64,000 nt of DNA from an uncultured bacterium (GCA_937903605.1 CALCZC010000007.1:37982-101981), one strand, 5' to 3'. Counted from the stretch's first letter, positions 17,957-37,187 are shown. The notes: a model not told the origin generated them from the sequence alone. Translations and numbers: made by a program.

Positions 17957-18331
17957 TTAATTATTTTTATAATTATATTTTTTCAAACCATTTATCAATT
18001 TACTCACAACTACTGTTTGATTGGCAAATAAACTAAATTTTTCCTGATTAATATATCCAATATCTTTAACTATTAATAATTGATTCTGCAATTCAGTTAA
18101 AGATCCTAAGGCCATGCTAAAAAAATTATTTTTATCCTTAGAGGTTGACCGACTGAAACCTTCAGCTATATTAGATGTAACAGAAACAACACAACGTCTC
18201 ATTTGACTTACTAAACCAAAGATTTCCTTATCCGGAAAATTTCCAGTTTCTTTATAAATTAATAATACTAATTTATGACCTTCTTTCCAAGCATTCAAAC
18301 CTGTAAACGATTTTATTTTCTTCCCCTCCAT
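17957..18331 (-). CDS. Four-helix-bundle protein (23S rRNA intervening-sequence protein family), second copy
   Basis: LVSQMRRCVVSVTSNIAEGFSRSTSKDKNNFFSMALGSLTELQNQLL matches the family core (IAEG...F...A.GS..E). Flanked by AT-rich inverted-repeat-like sequence. Confidence 0.8.
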   Translation of the reverse strand: MEGKKIKSFTGLNAWKEGHKLVLLIYKETGNFPDKEIFGLVSQMRRCVVSVTSNIAEGFSRSTSKDKNNFFSMALGSLTELQNQLLIVKDIGYINQEKFSLFANQTVVVSKLINGLKKYNYKNN

Positions 18332-18369: not shown

Positions 18370-19557
18370 TTATTTAATCTTTACAAAAAACCTACTTCCC
18401 TTTTGGACGATATCTCCTTTCTTAATTTCTGTTTTGATATCTTCTACTTTGATATCGTTTATTTTGACTCCACCTTGAGCGATATTTTGTCTGGCTTCAG
18501 AGGTGCTTTTACAAATTTTACTTTCAACAAGCACGGTAATAATATCATTTTTACTTGGGAGAAGTTCGGGAATATCTGTTGGAATTTCTTTTTTGGAAAA
18601 AGTGCTTATAAAATATTCTTGAGCTTTTTGCGCTTCTTCTTCACTATGATACATTTTTACCAAACTTTGTCCGAGCTTCATCTTGTAATCTCGCGGATTA
18701 GCGCCATTTTTCATTTCTTCTTTATATTTTTCTATTTCTTCCATCGAAGTATCAGTTGCCAATTCAAAATATTTCAAAATTAAAGAATCCGGAATTGACA
18801 TTATTTTACCAAACATCTCTTCCGATTTATCGGTCAAACCGATAAAATTTCCGTAAGTCTTACTCATCTTTTTTTCACCATCCAAACCTTCCAAAATCGG
18901 TACAGTTATAATATCCTGTTCCTCTTGATCGTATTTTTTTTGCAATTTTCTACCCATTAACAAATTAAATTTTTGGTCCGTACCGCCCAATTCTACATCG
19001 GCCTCCAGAGCCACGCTGTCATATCCTTGCAATAGAGGATACATTATTTCTTGCATGGCAATATCGTTTCCTTCCGCCAACCTTTTTTGGAAATCATCGC
19101 GTTCCAAAATTCTCGCCACGGTAATTTTTGAAGATAATTCCATAAATAAACGGGCGGAGTCAGGCTTTCCAAACCATTCGCTATTGTGTCTCAATTCAAT
19201 ATTATTAATATCGATAACTTTGGAAGCTTGCTGTACATAGGTTTCCATATTTTTTTTAACCTGCTCCGGAGTCAAAGGCGGACGTGTTTCATTGCGACCG
19301 CTAGGATCGCCGATCATCGCCGTATAATCGCCTATAAGCAAAATTACCTGGTGACCGGCTTTCTGAAACTGACGCAATTTTTGCAAAGGCACGGCATGGC
19401 CGATATGCAATTGCGAGCCGGTCGGATCAATACCAAACTTAATCCTTAATTTTTTCCCGGATTCTAATTTTTTTTTCAAACTTTCTTTTTCAATAGCCTC
19501 ACTCACTCCGCGAGTCAAAAGTTCGTTGATTGTTTGTTCATCAATTTTGATTTTCAT
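18370..19557 (-). CDS. tyrS: Tyrosine--tRNA ligase
   Basis: HIGH (GSQLHIGHAVP), KMSKS (KKMSKTYGN), C-terminal S4 domain. 395 aa. Confidence 0.9.
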   Translation of the reverse strand: MKIKIDEQTINELLTRGVSEAIEKESLKKKLESGKKLRIKFGIDPTGSQLHIGHAVPLQKLRQFQKAGHQVILLIGDYTAMIGDPSGRNETRPPLTPEQVKKNMETYVQQASKVIDINNIELRHNSEWFGKPDSARLFMELSSKITVARILERDDFQKRLAEGNDIAMQEIMYPLLQGYDSVALEADVELGGTDQKFNLLMGRKLQKKYDQEEQDIITVPILEGLDGEKKMSKTYGNFIGLTDKSEEMFGKIMSIPDSLILKYFELATDTSMEEIEKYKEEMKNGANPRDYKMKLGQSLVKMYHSEEEAQKAQEYFISTFSKKEIPTDIPELLPSKNDIITVLVESKICKSTSEARQNIAQGGVKINDIKVEDIKTEIKKGDIVQKGSRFFVKIK

Positions 19558-22324: not shown

Positions 22325-22556
22325 AAAATACGAAAAATACACAAAAGATTTCCGAGTTAATATCGGAATCTCTTTTTTTGTAATTTTACAGGAAAAAAAA
22401 GAAATTTGCAAGGCAAATTTCGACTTCGGACTATAGACTACAGACTGTAATTAGACTTCAGTCAATCAGACTACGGACTACATATAGACTGGAGTCTGAA
22501 GACCGTAAATTATTGACGTTTTTTATTTAATATTAGCCAAAAAACAGCTTAGACAC

Positions 22557-22585
22557 TTGACAAAATAGTCAAAATATGCTATCAT
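22557..22585 (+). promoter_or_regulatory. Near-consensus sigma-70-type promoter (TTGACA-17-TATCAT)
   Basis: TTGACA at 22557-22562, 17-nt spacer, TATCAT at 22580-22585. Sits inside a repeat-dense 620-bp intergenic region, about 440 nt upstream of the next ORF. Confidence 0.5.
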
Positions 22586-23029
22586 ATATTGTTTAGTGCC
22601 TGGATTTTCGCTAAAATATGTTTAGACTTCGGACTACGGTCTACGGACTTCTCGGTAAGCAGAAGACTGAAGACAGTAGACTGAAGACCAATATCGCTCT
22701 TTACAATAAATGTGTGTGTTTAACCGGACTTCAGACTACAGGCTACAGACTACAAAATCTGGAGGCTGAAGACTGAAGACCGAAGACTAGTGTTAATTGG
22801 ATGAAGAGAGAAAAGTATGAAATAAGCTAGTAAGCAATAAGCTTGTAAGTCTACCTATCGGTAGACAGGCTGATAAGCTAAGAAGTTGACGAGATACAAA
22901 GCCCATGAAATAAATTTTAAAGAGGGCTGTAGTCAGAAGACTGTAGACTGAAGACCGAATTTACTTTTTTCTTTCCATCCAATTAACATATATTTTAAGC
23001 ATTACAAACAACAATACAAGGAGCGTGTC

Positions 23030-23656
23030 ATGAAGAACACCAAGAAAAACGCCTTCGCTTCCGTTTTCATCTCGTGTATCATTTTTATTACCTTTATCAC
23101 TATCACTTCATGTGGCGGTGAAGAACCGAATCTGCCTGACGACGATCAGGACAATGACGAAATCGCTGTTACCGACGATGAGCCGGTTGACAACGAACAG
23201 CCTGATGATGTAGTGGACGAAGAACCGGTTGACGATGATCAGCAGATTGATTGGTGTGGCCGTCTGGACCAGAACTATCGTCTCAGTGGTGAACCGATTT
23301 GGGAAGACCCGGAATTTCATTATGAATATCCGGTTACAATGACCAACAAAAAAGAGGGCTGTAATGTTATTTCGATGAACGAAGAACACGGCCCCTACAT
23401 TGAGTTCACTACTCAAGCTGAAAGTCTTCCGCTGGAAGGTCCTGACACCGCATATAATAACGGTTGTATCTGGTTCCTTTTCAAGCACGATCCGACTCCT
23501 TTTGGAAAAGATCAAGGACTCCTTTGGAGAAGGATTTGTCCAAAAGAACTTTTTGACAAATGGGAAGTTGAATGCCGAGAATTATCGGAAGATATTCCGG
23601 TAAAATACAAAGACGGAAATTGGTGCGCTGACTGGTGGATGGATGTCTACCGATAA
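23030..23656 (+). CDS. Acidic lipoprotein, paralog A (signal peptide + lipobox Cys, D/E-rich linker, Cys-containing C-terminal domain)
   Basis: MKNTKKNAFASVFISCIIFITFITITSCGGEEPNLPDDDQDNDEIAVTDDEPVDNEQPDDVVDEEPVDDD. Signal peptide with lipobox-like TSCGG. The N-terminal 70 aa are paralogous to the 25354 and 27619 genes. RBS AAGGAG. Confidence 0.6.
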   Translation: MKNTKKNAFASVFISCIIFITFITITSCGGEEPNLPDDDQDNDEIAVTDDEPVDNEQPDDVVDEEPVDDDQQIDWCGRLDQNYRLSGEPIWEDPEFHYEYPVTMTNKKEGCNVISMNEEHGPYIEFTTQAESLPLEGPDTAYNNGCIWFLFKHDPTPFGKDQGLLWRRICPKELFDKWEVECRELSEDIPVKYKDGNWCADWWMDVYR

Positions 23657-23671
23657 GCGTCCAAAAATTCA

Positions 23672-23708
23672 AAGAGCCAAGGCTTTCTGCCGAGGCTCTT
23701 TTTTTATT
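23672..23708 (+). terminator. Rho-independent terminator after lipoprotein A
   Basis: AGAGCCAAGGC...GAGGCTCT hairpin + TTTTTTT. Confidence 0.55.
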
Positions 23709-23761
23709 TATCCTGTGAAATTCTAAATATTTTAATATTGTAATATTTTAATATTTTATTT

Positions 23762-23931
23762 CTATTCAACTATCACACTCCCATTATATAGCACCCAGGC
23801 TTTATTTTGAGTTTGAACACAATCGTTTTGATTTACGGAAATTTCAGCATAACACCCGTTCCCCGTATAATTAGGATTCATACCTGTATCACACCTTCCA
23901 CTACACCACCCCCAATTATCCAACACCTGAA
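23762..23931 (-). pseudogene. Orphan start-less copy of the Cys-rich C-terminal module (QVLDNWGWCSGRC...NGSVIVE) found at the C-terminus of the giant protein
   Basis: 217 bp (23715-23931) are identical except for one synonymous base to 25980-26196. Reading frame gives QVLDNWGWCSGRCDTGMNPNYTGNGCYAEISVNQNDCVQTQNKAWVLYNGSVIVE* but is preceded by an in-frame TAA directly after the ATPase stop. No start or signal peptide. Confidence 0.5.
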
Positions 23932-23935
23932 AATT

Positions 23936-25141
23936 TTATATCTGCCAAGGATAAAATAAATTATTTTTATCAATCTGTTTTTCTTTATCCAAAACAACAT
24001 AATTTAAAGCGATTTGAGGATAGTTTTCCAAAAATAATTTATATTTTTCATCATTATAATTACTACTTTTTGTTTTAACTTCAAAAGCTTGTTTTTCTTC
24101 AACAATAAAGTCTACTTCTTTTTTGTCGCGTGTCCGCCAAAATTTCAAATCTTCAGTGTCATACTTATTTAACAATTGACGAAAAGCCCCATTTTCAAGT
24201 AGTTGTCCCTTATCATCACGTTCATAAAAATTATCGAAATTATTTTTGAAGAAATTACGCATACCAGAATCACCAAAATAACATTTGGGCATTTTGATTA
24301 GTTCTTTGCGTATATTTTTATAAAACGGTCGCATTAAAAAAATATGAAAACTTTTTTGCATAACCTTCAAGTATTTATCAATCGTTATTTTGGTAACTCC
24401 AAGAGTCGCAGAAAGCTCGGAAATATTTACCAGCTCCCCTACTTGCCCGCTCAATATTTTCATCAATCGGAAAAAAGTTTCCTCTTGATTTATGTCGGCT
24501 TCGTAAATATCTTTTTTGATATACGAATACGCCAAATCTTTCAAAACCTCTTGTTTCTCCGGAATACTTTTGGCCAATACTACCCGCGGATAACCCCCAT
24601 AAGTTAGATATTCCAAATATAGCGGCATTATTTTTTCTTGAAGTTGTAACGGTAATTCTTTTGATATATCTGTTTTAGACAAATCATCCTCACCTTTAAA
24701 TTTCAAAAACTCTTCAAAAGACAGAGTTAATAAATACAAAATTTTCTTTCTGCCGGCCAATGAATCTTTGAATTTTTTATCCAAATAAAAAGCAGAGGAA
24801 CCGGAAGCGATGATTTTTATTTTCCCTTTATATTCATCATAAAAATATTTCAAAAAATTAGAGGGGTCTTTTAAATATTGAATCTCATCAACAAAAAGAT
24901 AGTTCCTTTTTTCTTTATCAAAAGGAATAATATTAAATAAATTTTTCGGAGAATCATTTAAAAGACGCAAAAAATCAGGATCTTCTAAATTTAAAAAATG
25001 GCATGTATTTCCATTTTGTTTTAAATATTCAAGAGCTTGGCGCATACTGGTAGTTTTGCCAACTTGCCTGGGTCCTATGATCAACACAACTTCGTCGTTT
25101 GATAAATTTTCTTTTATATTAGCCAAAATTTTTCTTTCCAT
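23936..25141 (-). CDS. AAA+ ATPase of the AAA_14/DUF4143 family
   Basis: Walker A LIIGPRQVGKTT, Walker B YLFVDEIQ, C-terminal DUF4143-like region (YFGDSGMRN, WRTRDKKEVDFIVE). Confidence 0.75.
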   Translation of the reverse strand: MERKILANIKENLSNDEVVLIIGPRQVGKTTSMRQALEYLKQNGNTCHFLNLEDPDFLRLLNDSPKNLFNIIPFDKEKRNYLFVDEIQYLKDPSNFLKYFYDEYKGKIKIIASGSSAFYLDKKFKDSLAGRKKILYLLTLSFEEFLKFKGEDDLSKTDISKELPLQLQEKIMPLYLEYLTYGGYPRVVLAKSIPEKQEVLKDLAYSYIKKDIYEADINQEETFFRLMKILSGQVGELVNISELSATLGVTKITIDKYLKVMQKSFHIFLMRPFYKNIRKELIKMPKCYFGDSGMRNFFKNNFDNFYERDDKGQLLENGAFRQLLNKYDTEDLKFWRTRDKKEVDFIVEEKQAFEVKTKSSNYNDEKYKLFLENYPQIALNYVVLDKEKQIDKNNLFYPWQI

Positions 25142-25223
25142 ATAGTTATTTTAGATAATTTATATACTACAATATATAATATATCAGACTATTTATATTT
25201 TGTCAATATAAAAAAGATATTTT

Positions 25224-25370
25224 TCTCTTGACAATCCCTCTGTTTTATGTCAATATACGTTGTTTAGTCTCAATATCTGCGCTAAAATAAAAAATATAAA
25301 TAGCTCTTTAATAATTTTTTAATGTGTTATAAACTTTTTGCAAGGAGAGTGTCATGAAAAAGAACGCTTT
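25224..25370 (+). repeat. About 147-bp promoter/leader repeat (copy 1), identical to 27489-27635
   Basis: TCTCTTGACAATCCCTCTGTTTTATGTCAATATACGTTG...TTTTTGCAAGGAGAGTGTCATGAAAAAGAAC is shared verbatim upstream of lipoprotein genes B and C and includes a TTGACA box. Confidence 0.7.
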
Positions 25371-25851
25371 CACGGTCACGGTTGTGGCCATCGCCTTTGC
25401 CTTCATTTTCATCGCCTGTGGCGGTGAGGAACCGGAACATCCGGATGACGATCAGAACAATGACGAGATTGCTGTTACCGACGATGAGCCGGACAACGAA
25501 CAGCCCGATGATGTTATCGATGAAGAAAATCCTGATGAAGATCAAGTAGTTATCGCAAATTGCGAAAAATTACTTGACATTGTCGGAGATTGGACTAGTA
25601 TCAATATTGAAGGGTATGATATTACGGTAACAGTCACACCCAAAGAAAAAAATTGTGAAGTAGCAGTGGAATGGACCAAAGGATATTCCGGAGTACAAAA
25701 ATGGTATGGATTAGAGCTCCCCCTGACTTATTGGGAAGAGGAAGCTTATAGAAACTACACCCTGAAAAAAACCGGAGAAAATCTGGTTCGAGAAGATACT
25801 CTTAAAACTGGAGGATTTGATAATGAGTGGGTCTTCAAAAAAATTCAGTAA
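25354..25851 (+). CDS. Acidic lipoprotein, paralog B
   Basis: MKKNAFTVTVVAIAFAFIFIACGGEEPEHPDDDQNNDEIAVTDDEPDNEQPDDVIDEENPDEDQ. Lipobox FIACGG. C-terminal ~90-aa domain with 2 Cys, similar to paralog C. Confidence 0.6.
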   Translation: MKKNAFTVTVVAIAFAFIFIACGGEEPEHPDDDQNNDEIAVTDDEPDNEQPDDVIDEENPDEDQVVIANCEKLLDIVGDWTSINIEGYDITVTVTPKEKNCEVAVEWTKGYSGVQKWYGLELPLTYWEEEAYRNYTLKKTGENLVREDTLKTGGFDNEWVFKKIQ

Positions 25852-25918
25852 TTCGGATACAGGAGTCCGAATTCTGAATTTAGAGGGTAGGAAAAAAAAC
25901 ACACCCTCAAAACTTCAA

Positions 25919-25946
25919 AGCCCAGGCATTGCCTGGGCTCTTTTTT
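25919..25946 (+). terminator. Rho-independent terminator after lipoprotein B
   Basis: AGCCCAGGC ATT GCCTGGGCT + TTTTTT. Confidence 0.6.
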
Positions 25947-26026
25947 ATCCAATTTTTCTTTTCTTAATATCTTCACCCCGTGAAATTCTAAATATTTTAA
26001 TATTGTAATATTTTAATATTTTATTT

Positions 26027-26263
26027 CTATTCTACTATCACACTCCCATTATATAGCACCCAGGCTTTATTTTGAGTTTGAACACAATCGTTTTGATTTA
26101 CGGAAATTTCAGCATAACACCCGTTCCCCGTATAATTAGGATTCATACCTGTATCACACCTTCCACTACACCACCCCCAATTATCCAACACCTGAACTCG
26201 CGGGAATCTGGCGTTAATAGGACCTGAATAATAAATACTTAAATAAAATATAATATTCTTCAC
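26027..26263 (-). CDS. Orphan Cys-rich C-terminal module ORF (78 aa, no signal peptide), paralogous to the giant-protein C-terminus
   Basis: MKNIIFYLSIYYSGPINARFPRVQVLDNWGWCSGRCDTGMNPNYTGNGCYAEISVNQNDCVQTQNKAWVLYNGSVIVE. The 3' 217 bp is identical to 23715-23931. Lies directly downstream of the ATPase gene. Confidence 0.45.
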   Translation of the reverse strand: MKNIIFYLSIYYSGPINARFPRVQVLDNWGWCSGRCDTGMNPNYTGNGCYAEISVNQNDCVQTQNKAWVLYNGSVIVE

Positions 26264-26271
26264 TACAAACT

Positions 26272-27396
26272 TTAAACCAAAAACTCTAAATAATTTTCTC
26301 TATTGATCACTTTGTATTCACTCTCTGAATATGTTTTTTTCCAGTCTTTTGGTGCGTCTTTTTTAAAATTTTGCGACCATTTTATTTCAAAGGCTCGAAG
26401 CTGTCCGTCTTTATCCTCAATCAAATCTATTTCTTGTCCGGCATATGTTCGCCAAAAATAAAGATTACCATAACTTTCTTTATATTCATCTTTTTTTATT
26501 TTTTCCATTACTACAAAATTTTCAAATAATCTTCCGACATCATCTCTATCATTTAAATCATTAAATTGTGAAATTACTGCATTTCTGATACCGTTGTCTA
26601 AAAAATAATATTTAGCTTTAGTCGTAATTTCTTGGCGTAAATTGCGAGAAAAACCACCCATCCTTTTTATTACAAAACCTTTTTCCAAAATATCCAGATA
26701 TTTAGCCACCGTTTTTACATCCATTTTTATCTGCGTTGCCAATTCACTCAAAGAAACCTCATTACCAACTTGAAAAGCCAATAACTTTAACAAATTTAAA
26801 AGCTGAAAAGAGCCACGAATTTTTTCAATATTCAAAACATCTTTTAATAAATAAGAAGATACCAATTCATTGAGTATCGCAATCTTTTCTTTTTTTGTTT
26901 TTGCTAAAAATACTTCTGGATAAGAGCCAAAAATCAAAAACTCTGTAAGCTTTTCTTGTAACTCTTGTTTATTATAAACATTCAATAACTCAATTTGAGA
27001 AAAAGGATATAAAATCAAAGTTTTCTTTCTTCCGGTAAGTGGTTCCCCTATTTTTTGTTCTAAATCAAAAGAAGACGACCCTGTAACCACCACATAAATC
27101 CCTGGAATTTGGTCAACTAAAATTTTCAACGCCATACCAATGTTTGGAATATTTTGTGCTTCGTCTATGGTAATCAATTCATACCCCTCTGCATAGGCTA
27201 AAATTTTGGAAAAATCTTGAGAAGCCAGTATTTCTTGGGTTTTGATATTATCCCCAGAATCAATTTTATATTTTAATTCAGTTTTAGCCAAAAAATCGTT
27301 TAAAAGAGTTGTTTTCCCTACTCTTCTAGGCCCATAAACAACTAAAACTTTGTTTTTTTGTTTAATATTAGCCAAATTATAATATCTTGGTAACAT
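26272..27396 (-). CDS. AAA+ ATPase of the AAA_14/DUF4143 family (divergent paralog of 23936-25141)
   Basis: Walker A VVYGPRRVGKTT, Walker B LITIDEAQ, C-terminal DUF4143-like region (YFLDNGIRN, WRTYAGQEIDLIE). Confidence 0.75.
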   Translation of the reverse strand: MLPRYYNLANIKQKNKVLVVYGPRRVGKTTLLNDFLAKTELKYKIDSGDNIKTQEILASQDFSKILAYAEGYELITIDEAQNIPNIGMALKILVDQIPGIYVVVTGSSSFDLEQKIGEPLTGRKKTLILYPFSQIELLNVYNKQELQEKLTEFLIFGSYPEVFLAKTKKEKIAILNELVSSYLLKDVLNIEKIRGSFQLLNLLKLLAFQVGNEVSLSELATQIKMDVKTVAKYLDILEKGFVIKRMGGFSRNLRQEITTKAKYYFLDNGIRNAVISQFNDLNDRDDVGRLFENFVVMEKIKKDEYKESYGNLYFWRTYAGQEIDLIEDKDGQLRAFEIKWSQNFKKDAPKDWKKTYSESEYKVINRENYLEFLV

Positions 27397-27488
27397 ATAT
27401 AATCATTACTTTTTAATTAAATATAAGGATTTCTATTCCTTATATTTATTATAAAATAAAGGAATAGAAATGTCAAGAGAGAAAAATG

Positions 27489-27635
27489 TCTCTTGACAAT
27501 CCCTCTGTTTTATGTCAATATACGTTGTTTAGTCTCAATATCTGCGCTAAAATAAAAAATATAAATAGCTCTTTAATAATTTTTTAATGTGTTATAAACT
27601 TTTTGCAAGGAGAGTGTCATGAAAAAGAACATCTT
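27489..27635 (+). repeat. About 147-bp promoter/leader repeat (copy 2)
   Basis: Identical to 25224-25370. Confidence 0.7.
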
Positions 27636-28143
27636 TTCGGTCACGGTTGTAACCATTGCCTTTACCTTCATTTTCATCGCCTGTGGCGGTGAGGAACCGA
27701 ACCTTCCTGATGATGATCAAGACAACGATGAAATCGTTGTTGTCGACGATGAGCCGGACAATGAACAACCCGATGATATCGTGGACGAAGAGCCGGTTGA
27801 CGATGACCAGCTTCCGCTGGAGGAAGTTTGCAAGAATTTCCTTGACTATGCCGGAAATTGGACTATCGTTGATATGAGTTTTACCGGTGATTTCAGTGTG
27901 ACCCTCTCAGTTGAAGGAGAGGAATGCAAGATATCTGTTGTTGGCACAACGGAATTGGCATGGATTTTTGCCTGGAAAGGGAAAGAGATGCCTCTTGCAT
28001 GCGCTGAATTTGCGCCTATGACTTATTTTTTTTACCTTGTGGGGAAAAATGAAGCTGGGAGAATGATCTGGATAAAAGGTTGGGATGAAGAAAGTTGTAA
28101 AGATGCTGAAGCGGCAATGGTTATAACGCTTGAGAAAAAATAG
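27619..28143 (+). CDS. Acidic lipoprotein, paralog C
   Basis: MKKNIFSVTVVTIAFTFIFIACGGEEPNLPDDDQDNDEIVVVDDEPDNEQPDDIVDEEPVDDDQ. C-terminal domain (CKNFLDYAGNWTIVDM...ECKISVVGT) resembles paralog B (CEKLLDIVGDWTSINI...NCEVAVEWT). Confidence 0.6.
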   Translation: MKKNIFSVTVVTIAFTFIFIACGGEEPNLPDDDQDNDEIVVVDDEPDNEQPDDIVDEEPVDDDQLPLEEVCKNFLDYAGNWTIVDMSFTGDFSVTLSVEGEECKISVVGTTELAWIFAWKGKEMPLACAEFAPMTYFFYLVGKNEAGRMIWIKGWDEESCKDAEAAMVITLEKK

Positions 28144-28177
28144 CAGGAGGTAAAAATGCACACAAATACAAGCTAAA

Positions 28178-28206
28178 AGCCAGGGTAAAACCCTGGCTCT
28201 TTTTTA
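28178..28206 (+). terminator. Rho-independent terminator after lipoprotein C
   Basis: AGCCAGGG TAAAA CCCTGGCT + TTTTTTT. Confidence 0.6.
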
Positions 28207-28256
28207 TTCTTTATATCAACTTTATATACTTAATACTAAATACTTAATACTTTATA

Positions 28257-31200
28257 CTATTCTACTATTACATTTCCATTATATTCTATCCAGGGATACA
28301 TTGGAGAAGCAGGATTACCATTTTCAGGTACACAATCGCTTGCCGCACCATCTGCATAACACCCATAATTCCTTGTTCCATAAGGATTATTCGTAGTGCA
28401 TCTCCCACTACACCACCCCCAATTATCCAAAACCTGGACTCGCGGAGTACTAGTACTTGGAGTACTGGTATAAGTAAAGTGAAATTCGTATGGCGTGTTT
28501 TTGCAACCAGTACCATCTGTACCGCTCTTATTTCCAAAACTTCCCGGATCATTGTCTCCTTCTACAAAAGTAACACAGCGAGATGTTTGAACTGTCATCT
28601 TACCTCCAGCTTTCTTTTTTGCATCATAAAATACACAGTCTTCAGCTTTGTTACAAGGAATTTGATATTGATAGTTTGCTGGTTCATATTCACACCATCC
28701 AACGTGAGTACAAAGCGGTTTGCGGTTAGCAATACTGCGAGCTTCCAAAACTATTGCGGGGTCTTCGGTTTTTGTTTGATACATTATCCGACGTACCGGC
28801 ATTTGTGCCGGGTCAGCCCAAGCATAAAATTCCAGAGCCACATCGGAATTAGGACTTACGGTACAATTACCACCACTTAACAATTCATCACTACAATTTG
28901 ACTTATTAACCACTACTGTATTTAAAGCAAATGTTTTACAATCAGGTTTTCCACCTGCGGCTTTATAAGCCTCGCAATCCGCAGATCCGGGAGATAGTTG
29001 TATAGGCGCAGCAATCACTGGTGGTTTGATATTAACGTCACAACTCGAAGCCCTTTCAGGACTGGCACAATCTATTGGGGATTTAAAAGTTAATTTGGTT
29101 GGCTCCTTGAATTCATTTACCGAGCTGGTTGGGAAGACCCTGACAAACATATTTTTTAACATTTCCCCATATTTAAGGTCTTCTAAACTATAAATTCCAA
29201 ATCTAGGAAAACTAATTTCTGTTTCTATGTCATTTCTATTTTCATAAGAAATCAAGGGACTACGTACACGTTCACGTTCATCCAAATAAAAACCAAATTC
29301 ATTTGTTTTTCCCCCATAATATGTAGTCAAGAAAGGATTTGTCAAATCGGGAAAGGTAAAGTAGCCTGTCATATCCAACTTCGGTTCCTTGATGCCCTGA
29401 AAATAAGATCTATTTAAAGTATACGAATTGGTAGCAAAACGAGTGCTAGCCGTTTCATCTTTTGGAATATTGTAAACCGTATATGTTTGATCAGGATATA
29501 GCGTATCACCCATATTGGTTTTTCCTTTGATTAATCTCCAAGTAACTGGTTTGGCGTCAATGGCAATTTCAGCTGCTTGGGCACTTGCCCCTGGAGGACG
29601 ACTATTTTTTGAAACTTTGGCAAACTCTGTACAAGAACCATCAGAAAAATGTATGACAAAGAAAAAATTAATACCTGCTGTATGACCAGCATTATCATGT
29701 AAATCCAGTTGCGCACCGAGTAATTGATCATCGCTCCCCCAAATAATCCTTGCACCAAAACCATCAAAATCGGTTTCATATGAATTAGCTTCAAATTTTG
29801 TAGGACTTGTCGGCAAACCAAAAGTATCTTCTGTTTCGCTATAAAAAAACATTTTTTTCTTGTCCTTTGATTCAAAATAATCATACTCCTCACCTTCTCC
29901 TTTATTAGCCATAACCTTAACTTCCCAAATAGTTTTTCCATCCTTCTTGTAAGTACTTTTTCTTATTAATTGTTCTCTGTTATTACCATCTTTTAGCGGT
30001 ACTCCGAGTTTAGATTGCTTAATACAAACATCTTCCAAATCGTTTTCGCAATCATAACTTTTTTTATCGGTCGAATTTTTTTCTTTGGGCGAACAATCTA
30101 CTCCCTCTGTCAAATAACAACCGGTAATCTCTTTATTTTCAAAAGTAATAATGTTGTTGTTGAAAAATTGTTCTGTTGCTATTGGATTATCTGTACCATT
30201 CGCGACTATCCAGCCGGGAGACTCTCCTATACCAAAAAAATTAACCACGCCCTTTTTCTTCAATTCTTGGTAAGTTTTCCCCAAAACTAAATCTATTTTG
30301 ACCACATCTGTTTTCTTGATTTTTCCATTATTGTAAAAAGACGGTTCTGTAGCAGGAGTAAAAACACCAGTGAGTCTATCTTGAAATTCGCTGACTTTAT
30401 TATTATCAAGACTTAATGGACAATATACTCGAGTGTTATCTTTTTTTAGACTTTCAATAACTCCTTGTCTTAGAACAGGAAAAACCTTATTATCCATATC
30501 ATTGAAACATTTCAGTATATGAGCATTCGGTGGTAAATTATAAACCATGGCCGAAGAAACGTAGTTATGGTATGTAATCGTCTGAGAAGCTTGAACCATC
30601 CAATCAACTACCACACCTAGAGCTGCCACCCAACCGAATATAGAACTTACCGAAGCTGCAACAGCTGCCGCAATAGAGGCTGCAACCGCTCCGCCTATGG
30701 CTCCCGCTATACCTGTAATAAGGGCTGTCGTTCCAGCTACCATGCCAAAAGTTAAGGGGAACGAGCCACCATCAACCCAAGCAACACCTACGGCCGCATA
30801 TTTTTCCTCGTTGTTTATTGCTAATGCAGCATCTGTCATTTCTTGTGTTGAAGTAGAAAAACAAACATATTCTTCATCAATCTCATCTACGAGATATACT
30901 TCGCCAATCTTTCCTCCTGGTGTAGTTGTACAATACCCAGCATCACTCATTTGTTGAGTACATTTCAATGTATCCACTTGCATGTATGGCTTTGTACATC
31001 CTCCCCTAGTTAAATAAGCTGTTTCACACACACATCCTTTTTCCCATACCACCTGTTTGCTTGTAAAAAACTTATCACTTTTTACCATATTTATAGAAAA
31101 AGCATTGGCACCAGCTCCACCCAGATCAACGCAATTATCATTATCACCACCTAGATCACAATATTTGAAAACATCCACAGTGGTTGTCCTGCTTTCAACT

Positions 31201-34200
31201 TCTACATTTTTGGCATTATCGATCTCTCCTGCGCTAACAGGGTTACCTGCGTTAAAATAAAATTCTAAATTTGGCAAGGGTTTCAATTTTAACGGCTGAT
31301 TGGCAATACACATATATCTATCCTTGGTATCATTTCCTTCATAAGCGGCTTTTTTATCAATTATCCAAATATCCGGCGCACCAGGAGGAACCTCCACCGG
31401 CCACCAAGTCAAACAAGGATTTTGTTCTGGTTCCCCATAAAGCTTATACTTGGGATTTTTTTCTACACAATAACCTTGCCAACCTCTAACCTCGTTTACA
31501 CTTTTTTTATTAGCGCAAATTCCTCCTCCACATTGTTCGCTATTAACACACGGTGTTCCTTCGGTTTCAAGCGAACCGCCAATACAAATACTTTGGGATT
31601 CCCTTTCTGTCCCTAAAGGAAAATAAACAAACTGGTTATTATATTCTACTTTTTTATAACTACAATCACAGGAATCCTCTTTATTTACAGTGGTACAAAT
31701 TTCTAAAGCCTTATTTTTAACAAGATATGCGTAAGCACTCCTAGAAACAGGTGTCACTCCTTCGATTGTTTCAATAATACCCCATGGATCAAATGGACTG
31801 TTTTCTTCCGGATAACCACGACAAGAAAGTTCACCGGAAGTCCTGAGTTTGCCACGATTTCTTATCATATTATTTTCTATTCCACCGGTAATAGGATATA
31901 TACACTCTCCACCTAAACACAAACCTTCTTTATTTAAACCACAAGACTTTGTCATGGTATTATCAAACTTGTTACATTCCTGAACATTTCCTTGACCAGG
32001 GACAAAAATATTTCCACTATTTTCCCAATGGACCAAGCGCGGTTCAAAATAAACACCTTCTTCTCCACTACTTTGCACCAAATTACCCACATTATATGGT
32101 TCAACATCGTTCATACGAATATACCTTACTCCCAAAGACGGAATCTGATAAGAATTGTGTAAAGTATAACCACTTAATTCCGGATCTGCCCAATTAACAC
32201 CTCTGCTTCTATAATTACTGGTGGTTATTTTTGAATTTCTCCAAGCCCAGCTATCCAAAGTAACATTTTGATCGCAATTTCCTTCTGAAAACATACCTGG
32301 GAGAGATTTACTACACAAACCAAAGCTATAGCATCTGGCTTTATCATCTTCTACTTGATAATTGTTACAATACATCCAAAGATTGCATTCGCGATCACGG
32401 GCAACTTTTACCAAAATATTGGCGTCTCTAGTCTCTGTTTCTACCGGTGGCACCGGAGCTCCTTTGACCGCGTTGGAAGCCTCATAAGTAGCTTCTGTGT
32501 TATATTTTTTATTTGGATTATTTACTTGATCAAGTAATACACAACCATAATTCACACTCGCGCCATTGGGACATTCTTCGTTTATTTTTTCACTCAATTT
32601 CCCATTATCAATGAGATAGTAAGAATTGGCAGCCGGAATACAAGTATCCCCTTGTTGAGAGCTGCAATCTTTATCGTATTCACATTTCATCCCTGATATG
32701 CTGCATTTTTTAACCGAAACATCGTTATGATCGTCAAATCTAGAACAACCATCTTGAGAAGAAGGGCACTCGCCTACATAGCCTCTGTAGCTTGTCGTAT
32801 TACCAAACGGTGGCAAAGAAATGCCAAGACCGGTAGCACAAACCTGTGTTTCATCATCTTTTAACACCCATTTACCGATTTTGGAATTACCAACGGTTTC
32901 CTCTTTATAAACACAAACTTTTTTACCAATGTTTTCCGGATCTTTAAAATAATAATTTCCTGAACCGGAACGCCAAACATCACACCCTTCAGCTTCTTTG
33001 GTACAGAGAATTCCACGATTATTACTACCTGACGATTCATAGCGAGTAGGATCGTTGATAATATAGGCATCTTCAAAAACGTATGTATTGGTGACATTTT
33101 TATATCCTTTACCCATCAAAGTACAGCCAACATTGTCTTTGTTACAAAAATTATTTACATTATCATTTTTTCTAATTGTCAAATAAATAGGCGAACTTGT
33201 TGGAGAAGTCTGTTTATAAACCAAAACCGTTGAAGTGGTAAACGCAGCACCGGTTAAAGAGCTTTGTCCGATACCGGAAGCATTTACATAACAACCGCCT
33301 TCGCCATCGGGCACAATACAATCATAATTTATACCGTTGATTTGAATAGTTGGTTTATTGCCAACCTCCGGTTTTTGTAAACCTAGATTAAATATCTGCC
33401 AAGTGGTGCTGGCGATATTACTACCTTTATTGTAAGTATCAACCAAACGAGTACAACCAATAGCCCCATCTCTGCAAAGATAACTGAAATTGTGTAAATA
33501 AATATTATCTTTACTAAGCGGAGATTTGTAAGCACGACAACCCAAGGCAGAACCTGGGAGGTTATCTTTTTGATCAAGATCGCATGATGCAGGAACCGAA
33601 AGTTTATCTTTTACCAGATAAACTGTGTCGTCTATACTTTTTAACGAAACATTATCCAAGAAGATAACTCCTCCAGCTCTATTATAATCTAAAAATATTA
33701 TATGAGCCCCTTCACCAGATGGCACACTCCCGCTAATAGCGGGATTACTTATTACGAATTCATAACGACGCCAATTGTCTGTCAAATTAACAGTTCCAAC
33801 ATTGTAGGTAAAGCCATTACCCAAAGTGATATCCCATCTTTTTGTACCTTTGGCTAAGAAAGAAAGTGAATAAACTCCGGTATTTTTTATATCCGTATTA
33901 TAATGTCTAAAACCTCGAGTAGCAGTACCGCTATTTGCCGCCACTGTAACTTTCAAAGATTTACCAAAATTGGATAACGTTTCTTCTGACAAAGAGATGG
34001 TAGTACCATTGTCAGCACTTTCGCTTGTCTTCCACCAGCCCCTTTTTGTATTGGAAACCATATTAGTCAAACCGATACCAGAGTCAAAACTATATGTAGG
34101 GAAAATATCTCTTATATTATTACCAGTGTTACCTTGATATTTGCGACATGATACTTTGTCTTGAGAACAAATTTTACTTTCAGCCCCACCAGCAACCACA

Positions 34201-37187
34201 ATATTTTGAGGTAAACCGTTGTAAATACAAAAACCTGTTGCCGTATCATAAAAAACAACATTGTCATTGCTGGCTGCGTTTTTCAAACCATCAAAACCAC
34301 CTAGACAATTTGTTTTGTTGCCGGAAATATCATAAAATTCAGATTTTACCGCTCTATACGGCGTACATTTATCCGATACTACCACTGTCTTGCTAAAATA
34401 AGCGTGATAAACTATACCTTGATCATCACGAAAAGCCCGACAATCTCCGGAAATGTCTGTTGCAGCAGTAGTAGAATTACAAGGAGCCATACCTGATTTT
34501 TCCGCTGGATCACGAAAATATTGAGCCGGCTGTTCACCGTTTTTGAGCAAAGTATAACTCTTGAGTTTATAACCTCCCCCTTCTCTTCCTTCGTAAGTAT
34601 AAAAATTCTTTTGTCTATTTTGATCCGGAGTCATGCACAGCCGCAAATCGCTGTAATATTCTGTCTGCACATTGCCGCCGGCAGTCACATTGAGATTTAC
34701 AAAAGCACTACAACCCTCTTCCTCCGAATCACATGTTGCTTCAACTTTGGGAATAATATAAACCAAGTCGTTGCCGTTACTATATTTGGTTTTCATTTCT
34801 TTATAAGAATTGTACCCTTCGCAAACAGATGGACATTCATCGTTCATAACAATTCCCCCGCTAACGTTTGCACGTCTAATAAACTTACCAACTATAGTTT
34901 CTTCTTTTGAACCTTCAAAAACAGCTAGAGGTAACTTGGTATACTGATTACAGCCTTCTTCTTCCGGTAAACAAATTCCGGCGTAATTAGCACATTCTGC
35001 CGGATTAACCGGTTTGATTTGATTAAGTTCTGATAAAGTTCTCGGCCATTGGATACCATTGTCCGGATTACTGTCTTTATCATAACAGCGTAAATAGTCC
35101 GGGGCTTTTTTGATAAATAATTCCTGACCAATTTCTTTGGTATTGGAAGCGTTGGTAATAACTGAAAATACTCGACTACAGCCGGCATTCTCGGCTTTGC
35201 ATGTCAAAACTTGATTATTAAAAAAATAAGAATAATTATTGCGAAAAGCACCGATTCCATCGGGAGTAGTGCTTGACAAAGCAGTAATATTTATTGTTGG
35301 AGAATATTTTTCTTGCCATTGTCCTACATTATTTTTATAAGCGGTGAAAAAGGTACAGCCAGCATTTTGTTCACTACACCAAGTATTGTCCAAGGTCTTC
35401 TGTAAATAAGTGACATTTTTACCTTTGGAAGAAGTAAATGATTTGCATGTATCATATTGACTGTCGCAATAATCAGCATTAAAGCGCCAAATATTTTTTT
35501 CTTCTAAACAATAACCATAAGCATTACAATTTCCTTTACTGTCATAGCCTACGCAACTCTGTAAATCCGCGCATTCTTCTTGTCTTATGGATATATCATC
35601 GTCAATTGTTCGTCCAGTATAAACAATCGCTTTACATCTAGTTTTTGGCATTTTCAATATCCAGTTGGGATTTACCATTTTATAATACTTAGAAGATGGA
35701 TTGTGAAAACCAGCCAAAACCTCAGAAAGTTTTGGTGGTGTTCCGGTTGCAGTTGCGGCTAAAATTTCCATACCTAACGGCCAGACTCTGGCTTTGCGCA
35801 ATACTTTGATATTGTCATAACAATAGGCTGATTCATAACATCTATCCCCTTTTGAAGCTATGCTTTCATCGGTTTGAAGACCTATTATTTGATGATCATC
35901 TATTTTTTCATATTGCAACGCTTCAGCAATTGTTAGAGGTCGCCCGTTCATATCAACCTCGCGTAAATAATCAGCAAATTTTTCATCCAAAATACAATTT
36001 TCCGCTGTATCACTACTATCATGATTACAAGTTCTAAAAAGAGCGAGTAAATCGTAATTATCATCGGATTTATTTTTAGCAATCAAAAGATCAGCAAAAA
36101 TCATTGCTGCTTCTTGTCGGAAAGTAGAAGCTCTAGCATCTTCATAATATCCTTCGGCAGTATATTTACTCTCTACACAAGTATCTATAGCTAGACCACC
36201 TATTTTCAAATAACTCGGGACACATTTGATTTTTCCTAAACCAAACGGGAACATCCCTTTATTAACAAAATTATCCACCATGGTACCGGCAAAAGTATTG
36301 ATGAAAGTGGCTGCAGCATTTTTCAGAACCTGGATACTTCCTTTTGTCAAAGCCGCTCCCATATAGACAGCGGTAGTTTGTTTTTCCGATTCGGCTTTTG
36401 CCGCCGGACCCGAACCGCGCAGTGTATCTCTATTAACTTCTGCCGGAGTCAAAACATCTTTGGAAATCAAAGAACTGAGAGCCTTGGTTCCTCCGTCTGA
36501 AGTACGCTCAGCTTTGGCTGCTTCCTCGGCTTTGAGAGTATAATCATCAATTTTACCTTTAGCTGCCAATCCTATACCCATATCAGTATCTGTAATATCC
36601 AAAGAAGCATTAAAAGTTTTGGAAAAATTTTCTCCATTGGCTCCCCAATATTTACTCTTGATGCCTTCAGCACTATAATTATCACGTAATTGTTGCCAGG
36701 TACAAGACGGTTTTTCTAAATCTGAATAACCCAAGTGCAAACCCATTTTCAAAGCCAAATCTAACTTCACATCCGGTAAGGCGCAAAGATTGAAGCCTAT
36801 ACCCTGTCCAAAACTATCTAATGCCGTTCCCAAAGCATCGCTGGCCACACCGGCAAAATAATTTCCTACGCTTTTCCTGTGAAACAACGGTGATTGCCCC
36901 CAATTTCCCGAAGCCAAAGAAACCGCCAAATCATAAGAAACTTTATTCAACATATAATCAACTCCTTTTACCACACCCAGCATTACCGCATCTAGAAGAT
37001 TATTCTTTATTTTGGTTAAGTTTTTTTCCAATTGTTCTCTGATAGTTTGTCCGGCTTGTTGGCTTTCAACCCCAGGAGCCGCGACCGTAAGCTGAGCTTT
37101 GGCTGAAGAAAAAGGTATAAGAGAAAAACAAAAAATAAGCAGAAGAAAAATTGCTATCAGCTTATTTATATTATTAAAAAATTTCAT
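28257..37187 (-). CDS. Giant secreted Cys-rich surface protein (2976 aa) with an internal Gly/Ala-rich two-TM hairpin and the conserved C-terminal NWGWC module
   Basis: Signal peptide MKFFNNINKLIAIFLLLIFCFSLIPFSSAKA. Many Cys throughout. Hydrophobic GSFPLTFGMVAGTTALITGIAGAIGGAVAASIAAAVAASVSSIFGWVAALGVVVDW (about nt 30600-30770). C-terminus PRVQVLDNWGWCSGRCTTNNPYGTRNYGCYADGAASDCVPENGNPASPMYPWIEYNGNVIVE. Confidence 0.7.
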   Translation of the reverse strand: MKFFNNINKLIAIFLLLIFCFSLIPFSSAKAQLTVAAPGVESQQAGQTIREQLEKNLTKIKNNLLDAVMLGVVKGVDYMLNKVSYDLAVSLASGNWGQSPLFHRKSVGNYFAGVASDALGTALDSFGQGIGFNLCALPDVKLDLALKMGLHLGYSDLEKPSCTWQQLRDNYSAEGIKSKYWGANGENFSKTFNASLDITDTDMGIGLAAKGKIDDYTLKAEEAAKAERTSDGGTKALSSLISKDVLTPAEVNRDTLRGSGPAAKAESEKQTTAVYMGAALTKGSIQVLKNAAATFINTFAGTMVDNFVNKGMFPFGLGKIKCVPSYLKIGGLAIDTCVESKYTAEGYYEDARASTFRQEAAMIFADLLIAKNKSDDNYDLLALFRTCNHDSSDTAENCILDEKFADYLREVDMNGRPLTIAEALQYEKIDDHQIIGLQTDESIASKGDRCYESAYCYDNIKVLRKARVWPLGMEILAATATGTPPKLSEVLAGFHNPSSKYYKMVNPNWILKMPKTRCKAIVYTGRTIDDDISIRQEECADLQSCVGYDSKGNCNAYGYCLEEKNIWRFNADYCDSQYDTCKSFTSSKGKNVTYLQKTLDNTWCSEQNAGCTFFTAYKNNVGQWQEKYSPTINITALSSTTPDGIGAFRNNYSYFFNNQVLTCKAENAGCSRVFSVITNASNTKEIGQELFIKKAPDYLRCYDKDSNPDNGIQWPRTLSELNQIKPVNPAECANYAGICLPEEEGCNQYTKLPLAVFEGSKEETIVGKFIRRANVSGGIVMNDECPSVCEGYNSYKEMKTKYSNGNDLVYIIPKVEATCDSEEEGCSAFVNLNVTAGGNVQTEYYSDLRLCMTPDQNRQKNFYTYEGREGGGYKLKSYTLLKNGEQPAQYFRDPAEKSGMAPCNSTTAATDISGDCRAFRDDQGIVYHAYFSKTVVVSDKCTPYRAVKSEFYDISGNKTNCLGGFDGLKNAASNDNVVFYDTATGFCIYNGLPQNIVVAGGAESKICSQDKVSCRKYQGNTGNNIRDIFPTYSFDSGIGLTNMVSNTKRGWWKTSESADNGTTISLSEETLSNFGKSLKVTVAANSGTATRGFRHYNTDIKNTGVYSLSFLAKGTKRWDITLGNGFTYNVGTVNLTDNWRRYEFVISNPAISGSVPSGEGAHIIFLDYNRAGGVIFLDNVSLKSIDDTVYLVKDKLSVPASCDLDQKDNLPGSALGCRAYKSPLSKDNIYLHNFSYLCRDGAIGCTRLVDTYNKGSNIASTTWQIFNLGLQKPEVGNKPTIQINGINYDCIVPDGEGGCYVNASGIGQSSLTGAAFTTSTVLVYKQTSPTSSPIYLTIRKNDNVNNFCNKDNVGCTLMGKGYKNVTNTYVFEDAYIINDPTRYESSGSNNRGILCTKEAEGCDVWRSGSGNYYFKDPENIGKKVCVYKEETVGNSKIGKWVLKDDETQVCATGLGISLPPFGNTTSYRGYVGECPSSQDGCSRFDDHNDVSVKKCSISGMKCEYDKDCSSQQGDTCIPAANSYYLIDNGKLSEKINEECPNGASVNYGCVLLDQVNNPNKKYNTEATYEASNAVKGAPVPPVETETRDANILVKVARDRECNLWMYCNNYQVEDDKARCYSFGLCSKSLPGMFSEGNCDQNVTLDSWAWRNSKITTSNYRSRGVNWADPELSGYTLHNSYQIPSLGVRYIRMNDVEPYNVGNLVQSSGEEGVYFEPRLVHWENSGNIFVPGQGNVQECNKFDNTMTKSCGLNKEGLCLGGECIYPITGGIENNMIRNRGKLRTSGELSCRGYPEENSPFDPWGIIETIEGVTPVSRSAYAYLVKNKALEICTTVNKEDSCDCSYKKVEYNNQFVYFPLGTERESQSICIGGSLETEGTPCVNSEQCGGGICANKKSVNEVRGWQGYCVEKNPKYKLYGEPEQNPCLTWWPVEVPPGAPDIWIIDKKAAYEGNDTKDRYMCIANQPLKLKPLPNLEFYFNAGNPVSAGEIDNAKNVEVESRTTTVDVFKYCDLGGDNDNCVDLGGAGANAFSINMVKSDKFFTSKQVVWEKGCVCETAYLTRGGCTKPYMQVDTLKCTQQMSDAGYCTTTPGGKIGEVYLVDEIDEEYVCFSTSTQEMTDAALAINNEEKYAAVGVAWVDGGSFPLTFGMVAGTTALITGIAGAIGGAVAASIAAAVAASVSSIFGWVAALGVVVDWMVQASQTITYHNYVSSAMVYNLPPNAHILKCFNDMDNKVFPVLRQGVIESLKKDNTRVYCPLSLDNNKVSEFQDRLTGVFTPATEPSFYNNGKIKKTDVVKIDLVLGKTYQELKKKGVVNFFGIGESPGWIVANGTDNPIATEQFFNNNIITFENKEITGCYLTEGVDCSPKEKNSTDKKSYDCENDLEDVCIKQSKLGVPLKDGNNREQLIRKSTYKKDGKTIWEVKVMANKGEGEEYDYFESKDKKKMFFYSETEDTFGLPTSPTKFEANSYETDFDGFGARIIWGSDDQLLGAQLDLHDNAGHTAGINFFFVIHFSDGSCTEFAKVSKNSRPPGASAQAAEIAIDAKPVTWRLIKGKTNMGDTLYPDQTYTVYNIPKDETASTRFATNSYTLNRSYFQGIKEPKLDMTGYFTFPDLTNPFLTTYYGGKTNEFGFYLDERERVRSPLISYENRNDIETEISFPRFGIYSLEDLKYGEMLKNMFVRVFPTSSVNEFKEPTKLTFKSPIDCASPERASSCDVNIKPPVIAAPIQLSPGSADCEAYKAAGGKPDCKTFALNTVVVNKSNCSDELLSGGNCTVSPNSDVALEFYAWADPAQMPVRRIMYQTKTEDPAIVLEARSIANRKPLCTHVGWCEYEPANYQYQIPCNKAEDCVFYDAKKKAGGKMTVQTSRCVTFVEGDNDPGSFGNKSGTDGTGCKNTPYEFHFTYTSTPSTSTPRVQVLDNWGWCSGRCTTNNPYGTRNYGCYADGAASDCVPENGNPASPMYPWIEYNGNVIVE

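Follow-up and report, generated by a model that had tools for sequence, protein, structure and literature searches.

In a stretch of DNA from an uncultured bacterium (GCA_937903605.1 CALCZC010000007.1:37982-101981), two genes for AAA_14/DUF4143 ATPases, here named ATPase1 and ATPase2, each lie beside an orphan copy of the 3' end of a giant gene that encodes a secreted surface protein. We call the whole stretch of 64,000 nucleotides (nt) the window. In our opinion, both ATPases are fairly probably selfish or defence cargo, which occupies the junction slots of a recombining array built of giant-gene ends and lipoprotein genes; that is, they are passengers of the array and not its recombinase or loader. 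A first-pass annotation of the window had drawn attention to a strict pairing of the ATPases with the orphan cassettes. This pairing was found as described: no other gene of the family occurs in the window besides ATPase1 and ATPase2, and each of them is located beside an orphan.

Read along the minus strand, the order is giant gene, lipoprotein gene 3, ATPase2, orphan 2, lipoprotein gene 2, ATPase1, orphan 1, and lipoprotein gene 1, the lipoprotein genes being convergent (plus strand). The NWGWC module is encoded at exactly three sites of the window, which are the 3' end of the giant gene (the product ends in ...PRVQVLDNWGWCSGRC...YNGNVIVE) and the two orphans; its alignment gives the invariant core VQVLDNWGWCSG.C...GCY...C...W..G. 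Two families of direct repeats, D1 and D2 (Table 1), bracket the ATPase genes with the same spacing of 2265 nt, and no DNA similarity is detectable between the ATPase1 and ATPase2 genes. Loci from other assemblies, genomes, and metagenomes used for comparison are given L-numbers (L002, L094, etc.).

The description of both proteins as AAA+ ATPases with a DUF4143-like C-terminus was confirmed. The Pfam thresholds are passed for AAA_14 (107.6 bits, E 5.9e-31 in ATPase1 and 95.1 bits, E 4.4e-27 in ATPase2; gathering cut-off 27) and for DUF4143 (112.5 bits, E 2.1e-32 and 133.7 bits, E 6.5e-39, respectively; gathering cut-off 28.1), and the Walker A (GPRQVGKTT and GPRRVGKTT) and Walker B (VDEIQ and IDEAQ) motifs are present. 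The nuclease-type E-x-D...E-x-K residues are invariant in the family, E322, D324, and E337 being unchanged in 35 sequences. The PADLOC profile PDLC04789 (375 positions) is covered almost entirely by both proteins: residues 8-373 of ATPase2 align with its positions 10-373 and residues 2-384 of ATPase1 with its positions 3-366 (E-values in Table 1). As judged from these profiles, both proteins are full-length members of the PADLOC candidate phage-defence family PDC-S01 (AAA_14/DUF4143, COG1373, “predicted AAA+ ATPase”).

An AlphaFold2 model of ATPase2, in which our confidence is moderate (predicted local distance difference test, pLDDT, 67), contains an AAA+ core, a helical lid, and a winged helix (residues 196-265); in its C-terminus, an alpha-beta-beta-beta unit predicted at residues 287-340 bears the invariant acidic residues. 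The best folds proposed by Foldseek among PDB entries are Cdc6/ORC subunits and the archaeal ATPase SSO1545 (2FNA) (E 2e-7 to 6e-7; template-modelling score 0.45 to 2FNA), together with RuvB and MuB, and no sequence match of the ATPases to any PDB chain was detectable. A published catalogue places DUF4143, with its function unknown, among the PD-(D/E)XK families (PMC3424549). PDC-S01, an ATPase fused to a PD-(D/E)XK domain, is reportedly the fourth commonest predicted prokaryotic defence system and is experimentally unvalidated (PMC12988326; PMC13356809); it is widespread by horizontal transfer and frequent in small-genome host-dependent bacteria (PMC12988326). The literature on AAA_14, DUF4143, and COG1373 yielded mentions at the catalogue level only, and we found no functional study in it. 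The earlier remark that the family is poorly characterised and tied to defence or mobile islands is thereby borne out by the PADLOC match and by PMC12988326. Both genes are under strong purifying selection: the ratio of non-synonymous to synonymous substitution rates (dN/dS) is 0.05-0.15 for ATPase1 compared with its orthologs from related strains and 0.03 for ATPase2 compared with L094, and, since it is this low for both types, the genes are functional.

The two ATPases share 35% identity in a MAFFT alignment and 32% by BLAST. ATPase2 has about 8000 homologs at E < 1e-30; among them, proteins of Chloroflexota, Ignavibacteria, Planctomycetota, Kiritimatiellota, Spirochaetes, and several Patescibacteria classes share 57-70% identity with it. 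For ATPase1, the identity is 88-95% with the proteins of close relatives (one bears the label Candidatus Magasanikbacteria) and 56-62% with those of Kuenen-, Pace-, and Parcubacteria. Because the similarity of each protein to homologs from other phyla or classes greatly exceeds their similarity to each other, we interpret ATPase1 and ATPase2 as separate horizontal acquisitions and not as local duplicates. The family is present on 540 plasmid records; plasmid and phage collections contained distant relatives only (at most 50% identity).

The opposite scenario, in which a 2265-nt unit was tandemly duplicated on the spot and the two ATPases are paralogs that diverged in place, was rejected as scarcely credible. 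It would account for the common spacing of the two repeat families and for the identical gene order in both units. However, the flanking DNA of the units is 90-97% identical while the ATPase proteins are 32-35% identical, each ATPase has closer homologs (60-70% identity) in other phyla, and the 88-96% identical orthologs of each ATPase sit at different positions of the array in other strains. As a separate observation, the 2265-nt spacing is exact in both repeat families despite an 81-nt difference in ATPase length and several indels in the alignment; it represents either a coincidence or an unexplained length constraint.

The limits of the acquired segments can be read from a comparison, at the DNA level, of the window with ATP1-type copies (L023, L149, and L155) and ATP2-type copies (L024 and L094). 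Homology of the cassette begins 90-200 nt upstream of the ATG, in or beside the lipoprotein promoter, and ends at the stop codon, within 5 nt; for ATPase1, it starts at 25234-25289 in the comparisons with L023, L149, and L155. Each gene has its own promoter, which in ATPase2 (TTGACA-17-TATAAT, 27476-27448) fits the consensus at 12 of 12 positions, and in ATPase1 at 11 of 12 with an additional TG extension. The ATPase genes are self-contained cassettes, which carry a sigma-70-type promoter of their own and end at the stop codon.

The ATPase2 leader includes a palindrome composed of the inverted repeats I3 and I6 (DNA fold z = -4.0). Leaders of homologs from other phyla have conserved palindromes over the -35 and -10 boxes, for example ACTCCATAAATTT..AAATTTATGGAGT, with DNA-fold z-scores to -9.5. 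The leader palindrome is probably an autoregulatory operator for the winged helix of the protein. Sites with a palindrome over the promoter are located at 27429-27471 of the window and at L108:7937-7972, L121:788-820, and L100:7909-7950, and are similar across phyla (..CCATAAATTT..AAATTTATGG..).

An ATPase beside an NWGWC module does recur outside the window, contrary to what would have refuted the first-pass annotation by its own terms (homologs never adjacent to such modules elsewhere), though this recurrence is confined to one narrow lineage and to the same chromosomal locus. The ATPase–orphan arrangement was seen in several independent assemblies. In syntenic loci of related genomes, located beside the genes for the valyl-, tyrosyl-, and arginyl-tRNA synthetases (ValRS, TyrRS, and ArgRS; ValRS is 94.5% and ArgRS 93-97% identical), a gene for a 404-amino-acid (aa) AAA_14/DUF4143 protein shares 13 nt with the orphan next to it, which has 99 or 104 codons, and a convergent lipoprotein gene comes next. 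This protein is 38% identical to ATPase1 and 29% identical to ATPase2. A fourth ATPase type is present in L018 and L020, and further ATP1 and ATP2 contexts in L023, L024, L094, and L149-L156. The slots of this clade are occupied by four ATPase subfamilies with 29-47% mutual identity.

Beyond the clade, the pairing dissolves. By sequence search, the cassette family is small (9 matches), and a metagenome scan with the LDNWGWC pattern produced 79 loci (L015-L093), in most of which the module is the C-terminus of a 2600-3260-aa secreted protein (e.g., L030, L033, L049, and L080). Among the 29 other giant-gene loci having at least 3 kb of downstream sequence, none contains an AAA_14/DUF4143 gene within 8 kb, two contain orphan modules, and 23 contain a convergent lipobox open reading frame (ORF) within 1.6 kb; the lipoprotein partners of the giant gene in metagenomes have a linker that is either acidic or rich in Ser and Asp. 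Since 23/29 loci share the lipoprotein and 0/29 the ATPase, it is the giant gene with its convergent lipoprotein gene that forms the conserved core. From the side of ATPase2, NWGWC was found near none of its closest relatives at 54 genome loci (0/54), the 55th, L094, which comes from the same population and is 96% identical, being excepted. The co-occurrence of ATPase and cassette across independent lineages, by which a dedicated recombination system would be recognised, was not observed.

These counts bear directly on the functional link suggested in the first-pass annotation, namely, recombination or loading of the cassettes. In its developed form, the ATPase-nuclease would be a dedicated factor that moves orphan sequences into the expressed giant gene and brings about a switching similar to antigenic variation. 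Such a role would agree with the strict pairing in the window and its recurrence within the clade, with the DNA-binding, ATPase, and nuclease domains of the protein, and with the exchange of cassette tails between strains (L005). We nevertheless consider it very improbable, because the pairing is missing at all 29 and all 54 loci, orphans without ATPases exist, unrelated toxin–antitoxin genes interchange in the slot, and each of the four subfamilies is closer to homologs in unrelated contexts. The cassettes lack the putative half-site of the ATP2 operator, though the sequence that the enzyme in fact recognises may be another: a search near them located the half-site at the palindrome itself only, and the 13 matches against 7.6 +/- 2.5 expected represent no enrichment. 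Together with the separate acquisition of the ATPases with their own promoters, these data leave the proposed link unsupported.

The slots accept genes of other kinds. In L016, the slot holds an AbiEi-like gene and an AbiEii gene (Pfam 9.7e-19), the stop codon being about 6 nt before orphan homology that starts with ..FYAWADPSQMP. HEPN and nucleotidyltransferase genes are located upstream of the orphan in L039 and L028, MNT and HepT genes end about 1 nt before the orphan in L087, and HicB and MntA/HepT are found near the orphan in L029. Orphan modules without any ATPase occur in L029, L046, L047, and L050; L046 represents an exact tandem duplication of the cassette and lipoprotein gene with an empty junction. 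Since the tight stop-to-orphan junction is also characteristic of AbiEii, HepT, and nucleotidyltransferase genes, it is a property of the array and not of the ATPase.

Two more arrangements were noticed at these positions. At L029:12024-12329, a HEPN-like ORF continues, without a change of frame, a fragment of the conserved giant-gene region (..FGSTADTGCK..), and this looks like an orphan disrupted by the insertion of a toxin–antitoxin pair. At L058:434-1553, a pair of IS3-family-like transposase genes, that is, mobile genes of another kind, occupies the same position directly downstream of the giant-gene C-terminal module.

For the window, gaps of 8 and 0 nt between ATPase and orphan had been reported. 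The first value is correct, the ATPase2 stop codon (26272-26274) lying 8 nt from the orphan 2 ORF (26263), whereas the zero is only approximate for ATPase1. Its stop codon (23936-23938) precedes by 4 nt the point (23931) where near-identity with orphan 2 begins, in a shared reading frame (..PWQI, stop, NFQVLDNWGWC), and the first possible start codon of orphan 1, a GTG at 23926, is 9 nt from the stop. The two pairings in the window are not independent, as both are part of the 2265-nt repeat structure; the pairing itself is not due to chance. Read-through of the stop codon, fusing ATPase and orphan, was rejected because there is no consistent frame pattern: ATPase1/orphan 1 and the pairs of L018 and L020 are in frame, while ATPase2/orphan 2 and the L007-type pairs are out of frame. 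Independent translation of the orphans was rejected as well, since no Shine–Dalgarno-like sequence is present and the “start” of orphan 1 is a GTG inside the conserved QVLD codons.

Reassortment of the modules is evident when strains of the same or of related populations are compared. In L149, the order is giant gene, lipo1-like gene, ATP1, orphan, and lipo2-like gene, while in the window ATP1 is located between lipoprotein genes 2 and 1. In L004, the ATP2–orphan pair is joined to lipoprotein gene 1 and one unit is missing; in L002, the ATP1–orphan pair is joined to lipoprotein gene 2. These two structures match the reciprocal products, one with a deletion and the other a circle or extra unit, that are expected if the 97% identical orphan repeats recombine, although at 5-6x coverage they may be assembly chimeras across the 217-nt repeat and are suggestive only. 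In L005, the same ATPase2 (99.4% nt identity) lies beside a cassette with a replaced 3' half, the breakpoint being within the cassette at position 26114 of the window. Orphan 1 (23762-23931) and orphan 2 (26027-26196) encode an identical 54-residue module, and the adjoining lipoproteins 1 and 2 are about 45% identical, so the cassette tip and the lipoprotein are not strict cognate pairs.

Perhaps the ATPases stabilise the cassette array. By analogy with the toxin–antitoxin cassettes of integrons, addiction-type or toxic nuclease genes placed between direct repeats would penalise the loss of orphan units, and the ATPases would be retained for this reason. The presence of bona fide toxin–antitoxin or abortive-infection genes (AbiEii, MNT/HepT, HEPN/nucleotidyltransferase, and HicB) in the slots of other lineages is consistent with this explanation; deletion between the 97% identical orphan repeats does appear to occur (L004), and the palindromic operator suggests a tight autoregulation. 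However, PDC-S01 consists of one gene, beside which no antitoxin partner can be recognised, and a variant lacking one unit exists (L004), for which reasons stabilisation seems to us an improbable cause of ATPase maintenance.

Under the reading that we favour, of the ATPases as passengers, the protein would be an autoregulated, ATP-dependent DNA-binding nuclease, which acts alone as a selfish gene of the defence or addiction type; its domains, its palindromic leader, and the associations of its family point in this direction. The repeats flanking the slot (the lipoprotein promoter with the 5' end of the gene on one side, the cassette with the terminator on the other) would permit homologous recombination to transfer or exchange the gene between strains, to remove it, and to insert it anew. 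The short distance from stop codon to orphan would arise because orphan 5' DNA without function is lost until the nearest gene under selection is reached, as may be supposed for a streamlined genome.

Several circumstances weigh against this interpretation. In about 10 nucleotide-distinct junctions of the clade, the ATPase stop codon is 0-25 nt from giant-gene homology, which is many for passive hitch-hiking and erosion. The truncation points are located approximately 130, 95, 55, 45, 42, 37, 25, and 3 codons upstream of LDNWGWC, and several of them cluster at the motifs WADPAQMP and DPxxFGNT, which erosion does not predict. PDC-S01 has no demonstrated function, and the assignment as a “defence or addiction nuclease” derives from domains, distribution, and guilt by association; the structure model of ATPase2 is itself only moderately confident (pLDDT 67). 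Only 54 and 29 loci, respectively, represent the ATPase and giant-gene neighbourhoods outside the clade. Finally, direct repeats of host DNA flank 9 of the 47 ATP2-subfamily genes from unrelated phyla and 2 of the 172 control long genes (Fisher one-sided p = 1.9e-5; counted in the 54 genome loci of other organisms, L095-L148), and this excess suggests that the genes insert actively, by a mechanism that could be a source of orphans in its own right.

The flanking repeats are 14-141 nt long, their upstream copy being located 70-180 nt before the ATG and the downstream copy 13-125 nt after the stop codon (examples are L100:7817-9145, L108:7863-9199, L121:419-2218, the L103:10190-11576 region, and L120). 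They represent ends of host genes: in L100, the repeat corresponds to the final 40 nt of the gene upstream, in L108 to the initial 54 nt of the gene downstream, and in L121 to the secA promoter with the 5' end of the gene. In the ATP2-subfamily homologs, the cassette includes a leader of 70-140 nt, which bears a palindrome, and a trailer of 13-125 nt. Neither the ATPases nor the neighbouring genes examined contain a transposase or integrase domain, and neither terminal inverted repeats nor conserved ends were seen in the leaders or trailers.

One can suggest from these data that the ATPase cassette is a one-gene mobile element, the insertion of which duplicated the giant-gene 3' end with the lipoprotein gene, created the orphans, and drove the diversification of the array. 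The repeat excess, the origin of the repeats from host gene ends, and the consistent cassette limits are in accordance with this suggestion. So are the junctions, in which the ATP1 type meets the orphan at -130, about -45, -37, and -3 codons, and the ATP2 type at -95, -42, and -25 codons, always at the stop codon of the ATPase, and so is the presence of MuB among the fold relatives. However, the required duplication is about 1 kb, ten times the repeats seen elsewhere, and no prokaryotic transposition mechanism is known to yield long, variable duplications. The flanks are mosaic (the cassette is 97% identical between the units, lipoproteins 1 and 2 about 45%), the L046 duplication occurred without any gene at the junction, AbiE and MNT/HepT genes share the tight junction, and the lack of terminal inverted repeats or conserved ends also speaks against an element. 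On balance, we regard it as an unlikely, if tentatively arguable, origin of the orphans. Still more doubtful is the general form of this idea, according to which PDC-S01 genes are autonomous one-gene mobile elements (promoter/operator, ATPase, winged helix, and nuclease) that produce long, variable target duplications, and repeated insertions of these elements beside the giant gene made and continue to reshuffle the orphan units of this Patescibacteria lineage. If this were true, the diversification of the surface protein would be driven by a selfish nuclease.

Table 1. Coordinates of the ATPase genes, orphan cassettes, and adjacent features in the window.
Feature	Position	Strand	Description
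ATPase1	23936..25141	-	401 aa; AAA_14 + DUF4143 (Pfam); PADLOC PDC-S01 (PDLC04789, E 3.6e-93)
ATPase1 leader with own promoter	25142..25234	-	TTGACA-17-TATATT at 25206-25178; moves together with the gene
ATPase2	26272..27396	-	374 aa; AAA_14 + DUF4143 (Pfam); PADLOC PDC-S01 (E 7.7e-141)
ATPase2 leader	27397..27476	-	consensus promoter and palindrome (arms 27429-27449 / 27451-27471); probable autoregulatory operator
Orphan cassette 1	23762..23931	-	5'-truncated giant-gene C-terminal module (QVLDNWGWC...YNGSVIVE, then stop); without credible start codon
Orphan cassette 2	26027..26263	-	78-codon ORF; about 25 codons of giant-gene homology retained upstream of LDNWGWC
Giant gene	28257..37187	-	2976-aa secreted protein; final ~60 codons (28257-28445) are the expressed NWGWC module
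Lipoprotein gene 1	23030..23656	+	lipobox, acidic linker, variable C-terminal domain; convergent on orphan 1
Lipoprotein gene 2	25354..25851	+	convergent on orphan 2, divergent from ATPase1
Lipoprotein gene 3	27619..28143	+	convergent on the giant gene
Terminator-like GC-rich hairpin with T runs	23671..23706	.	between convergent orphan 1 and lipoprotein gene 1; kept in all three units
Direct repeat D1	25210..25509 (partner 27475-27774)	.	90% identity; lipoprotein promoter and signal-peptide/linker region; left flank of each ATPase slot
Direct repeat D2	25962..26196 (partner 23697-23931)	.	97% identity over 235 nt; cassette and terminator; right flank of each ATPase slot

No Pfam domain was found in the lipoproteins or in the NWGWC tip, NCBIfam gave no match for the ATPases, the lipoproteins, or the upstream genes, and an Rfam search of 22000-28600 at E <= 0.1 revealed no RNA family. 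Beyond lipoprotein gene 1, a spacer (22412-23029) packed with degenerate 7-nt microrepeats (GAAGACT, GACTACG) extends to ValRS; the same microrepeat spacer precedes the ATPase genes in L008, L021, and L149. The TyrRS gene (18370-19557) is 99.7% identical to the L007 copy and 56.5% identical to the copies of L011 and L012, and the flanking ValRS and ArgRS genes are 93-97% identical in L007, L011, and L012, which suggests that, among these close relatives, a foreign copy has taken the place of tyrS. A 124-aa ORF at 17957-18331 on the minus strand is labelled 23S_rRNA_IVP (Pfam), or bAvd-like, in the source contig and its relatives. Diversity-generating retroelements have bAvd as their accessory protein; the neighbouring genes that we examined around this ORF included no reverse transcriptase.

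As proteins, ATPase1 and ATPase2 add two unremarkable members to a family that is known but uncharacterised, and the interest of the locus lies in its context and in the lead given by the flanking repeats. It offers an unusually informative natural context for PDC-S01, reportedly one of the commonest predicted defence genes of bacteria and archaea and without known activity: in close strains, four ATPase subfamilies or toxin–antitoxin genes occupy the same slots among silent copies of a surface-protein tip, and their limits can be read to the nucleotide. The locus argues that PDC-S01 genes can be exchanged like cassettes of a selfish or defensive kind, and it also serves as a caution that adjacency within a repeat array is not proof of functional coupling. 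The palindromic operators and the excess of host-DNA repeats provide handles on the regulation and spread of the family. More broadly, the region downstream of the conserved surface protein of about 3000 aa represents a hotspot, where tip variants, lipoprotein variants, and defence genes reassort together in these small-genome bacteria.

Compared with the PDC-S01 system of PADLOC, the window proteins have the same single-gene organisation and the same architecture, an ATPase with a PD-(D/E)XK domain, and match the model from end to end; no difference is seen at the protein level, and only their setting is unusual, nested as they are among orphan pieces from the 3' end of the gene for a giant surface protein. 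ORC/Cdc6-type AAA+ proteins and SSO1545 (2FNA) resemble the ATPases in the AAA+ domain, the lid, and the winged helix, a similarity of fold only, and they differ in being without the C-terminal PD-(D/E)xK module.

Chromosomal integron arrays carry toxin–antitoxin cassettes. In the array described here, addiction or defence genes are similarly interleaved with promoterless silent cassettes in a repeat-rich region, and the slots of sister lineages hold AbiE, MNT/HepT, and HEPN/nucleotidyltransferase pairs. In contrast to integrons, the neighbouring genes examined include no integrase (no search for attC sites was made), and the exchange appears to use long homologous flanks instead of site-specific recombination.

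The polymorphic toxin loci Rhs and CdiA include arrays of orphan C-terminal modules interspersed with mobile genes. Our locus departs from them in that its tip of about 40 residues is cysteine-rich and has no recognisable toxin domain (Pfam), the partner is a convergent lipoprotein gene and not a co-directional immunity gene, and identical cassettes lie beside different lipoproteins. The likeness concerns the plan of the locus: a main gene has a variable C-terminal tip after an invariant motif (VQVLDNWGWCSG), the 5'-truncated orphans downstream keep a part of the conserved region, each with a small and variable partner gene after it, selfish genes lie in between, and the modules are exchanged between strains.

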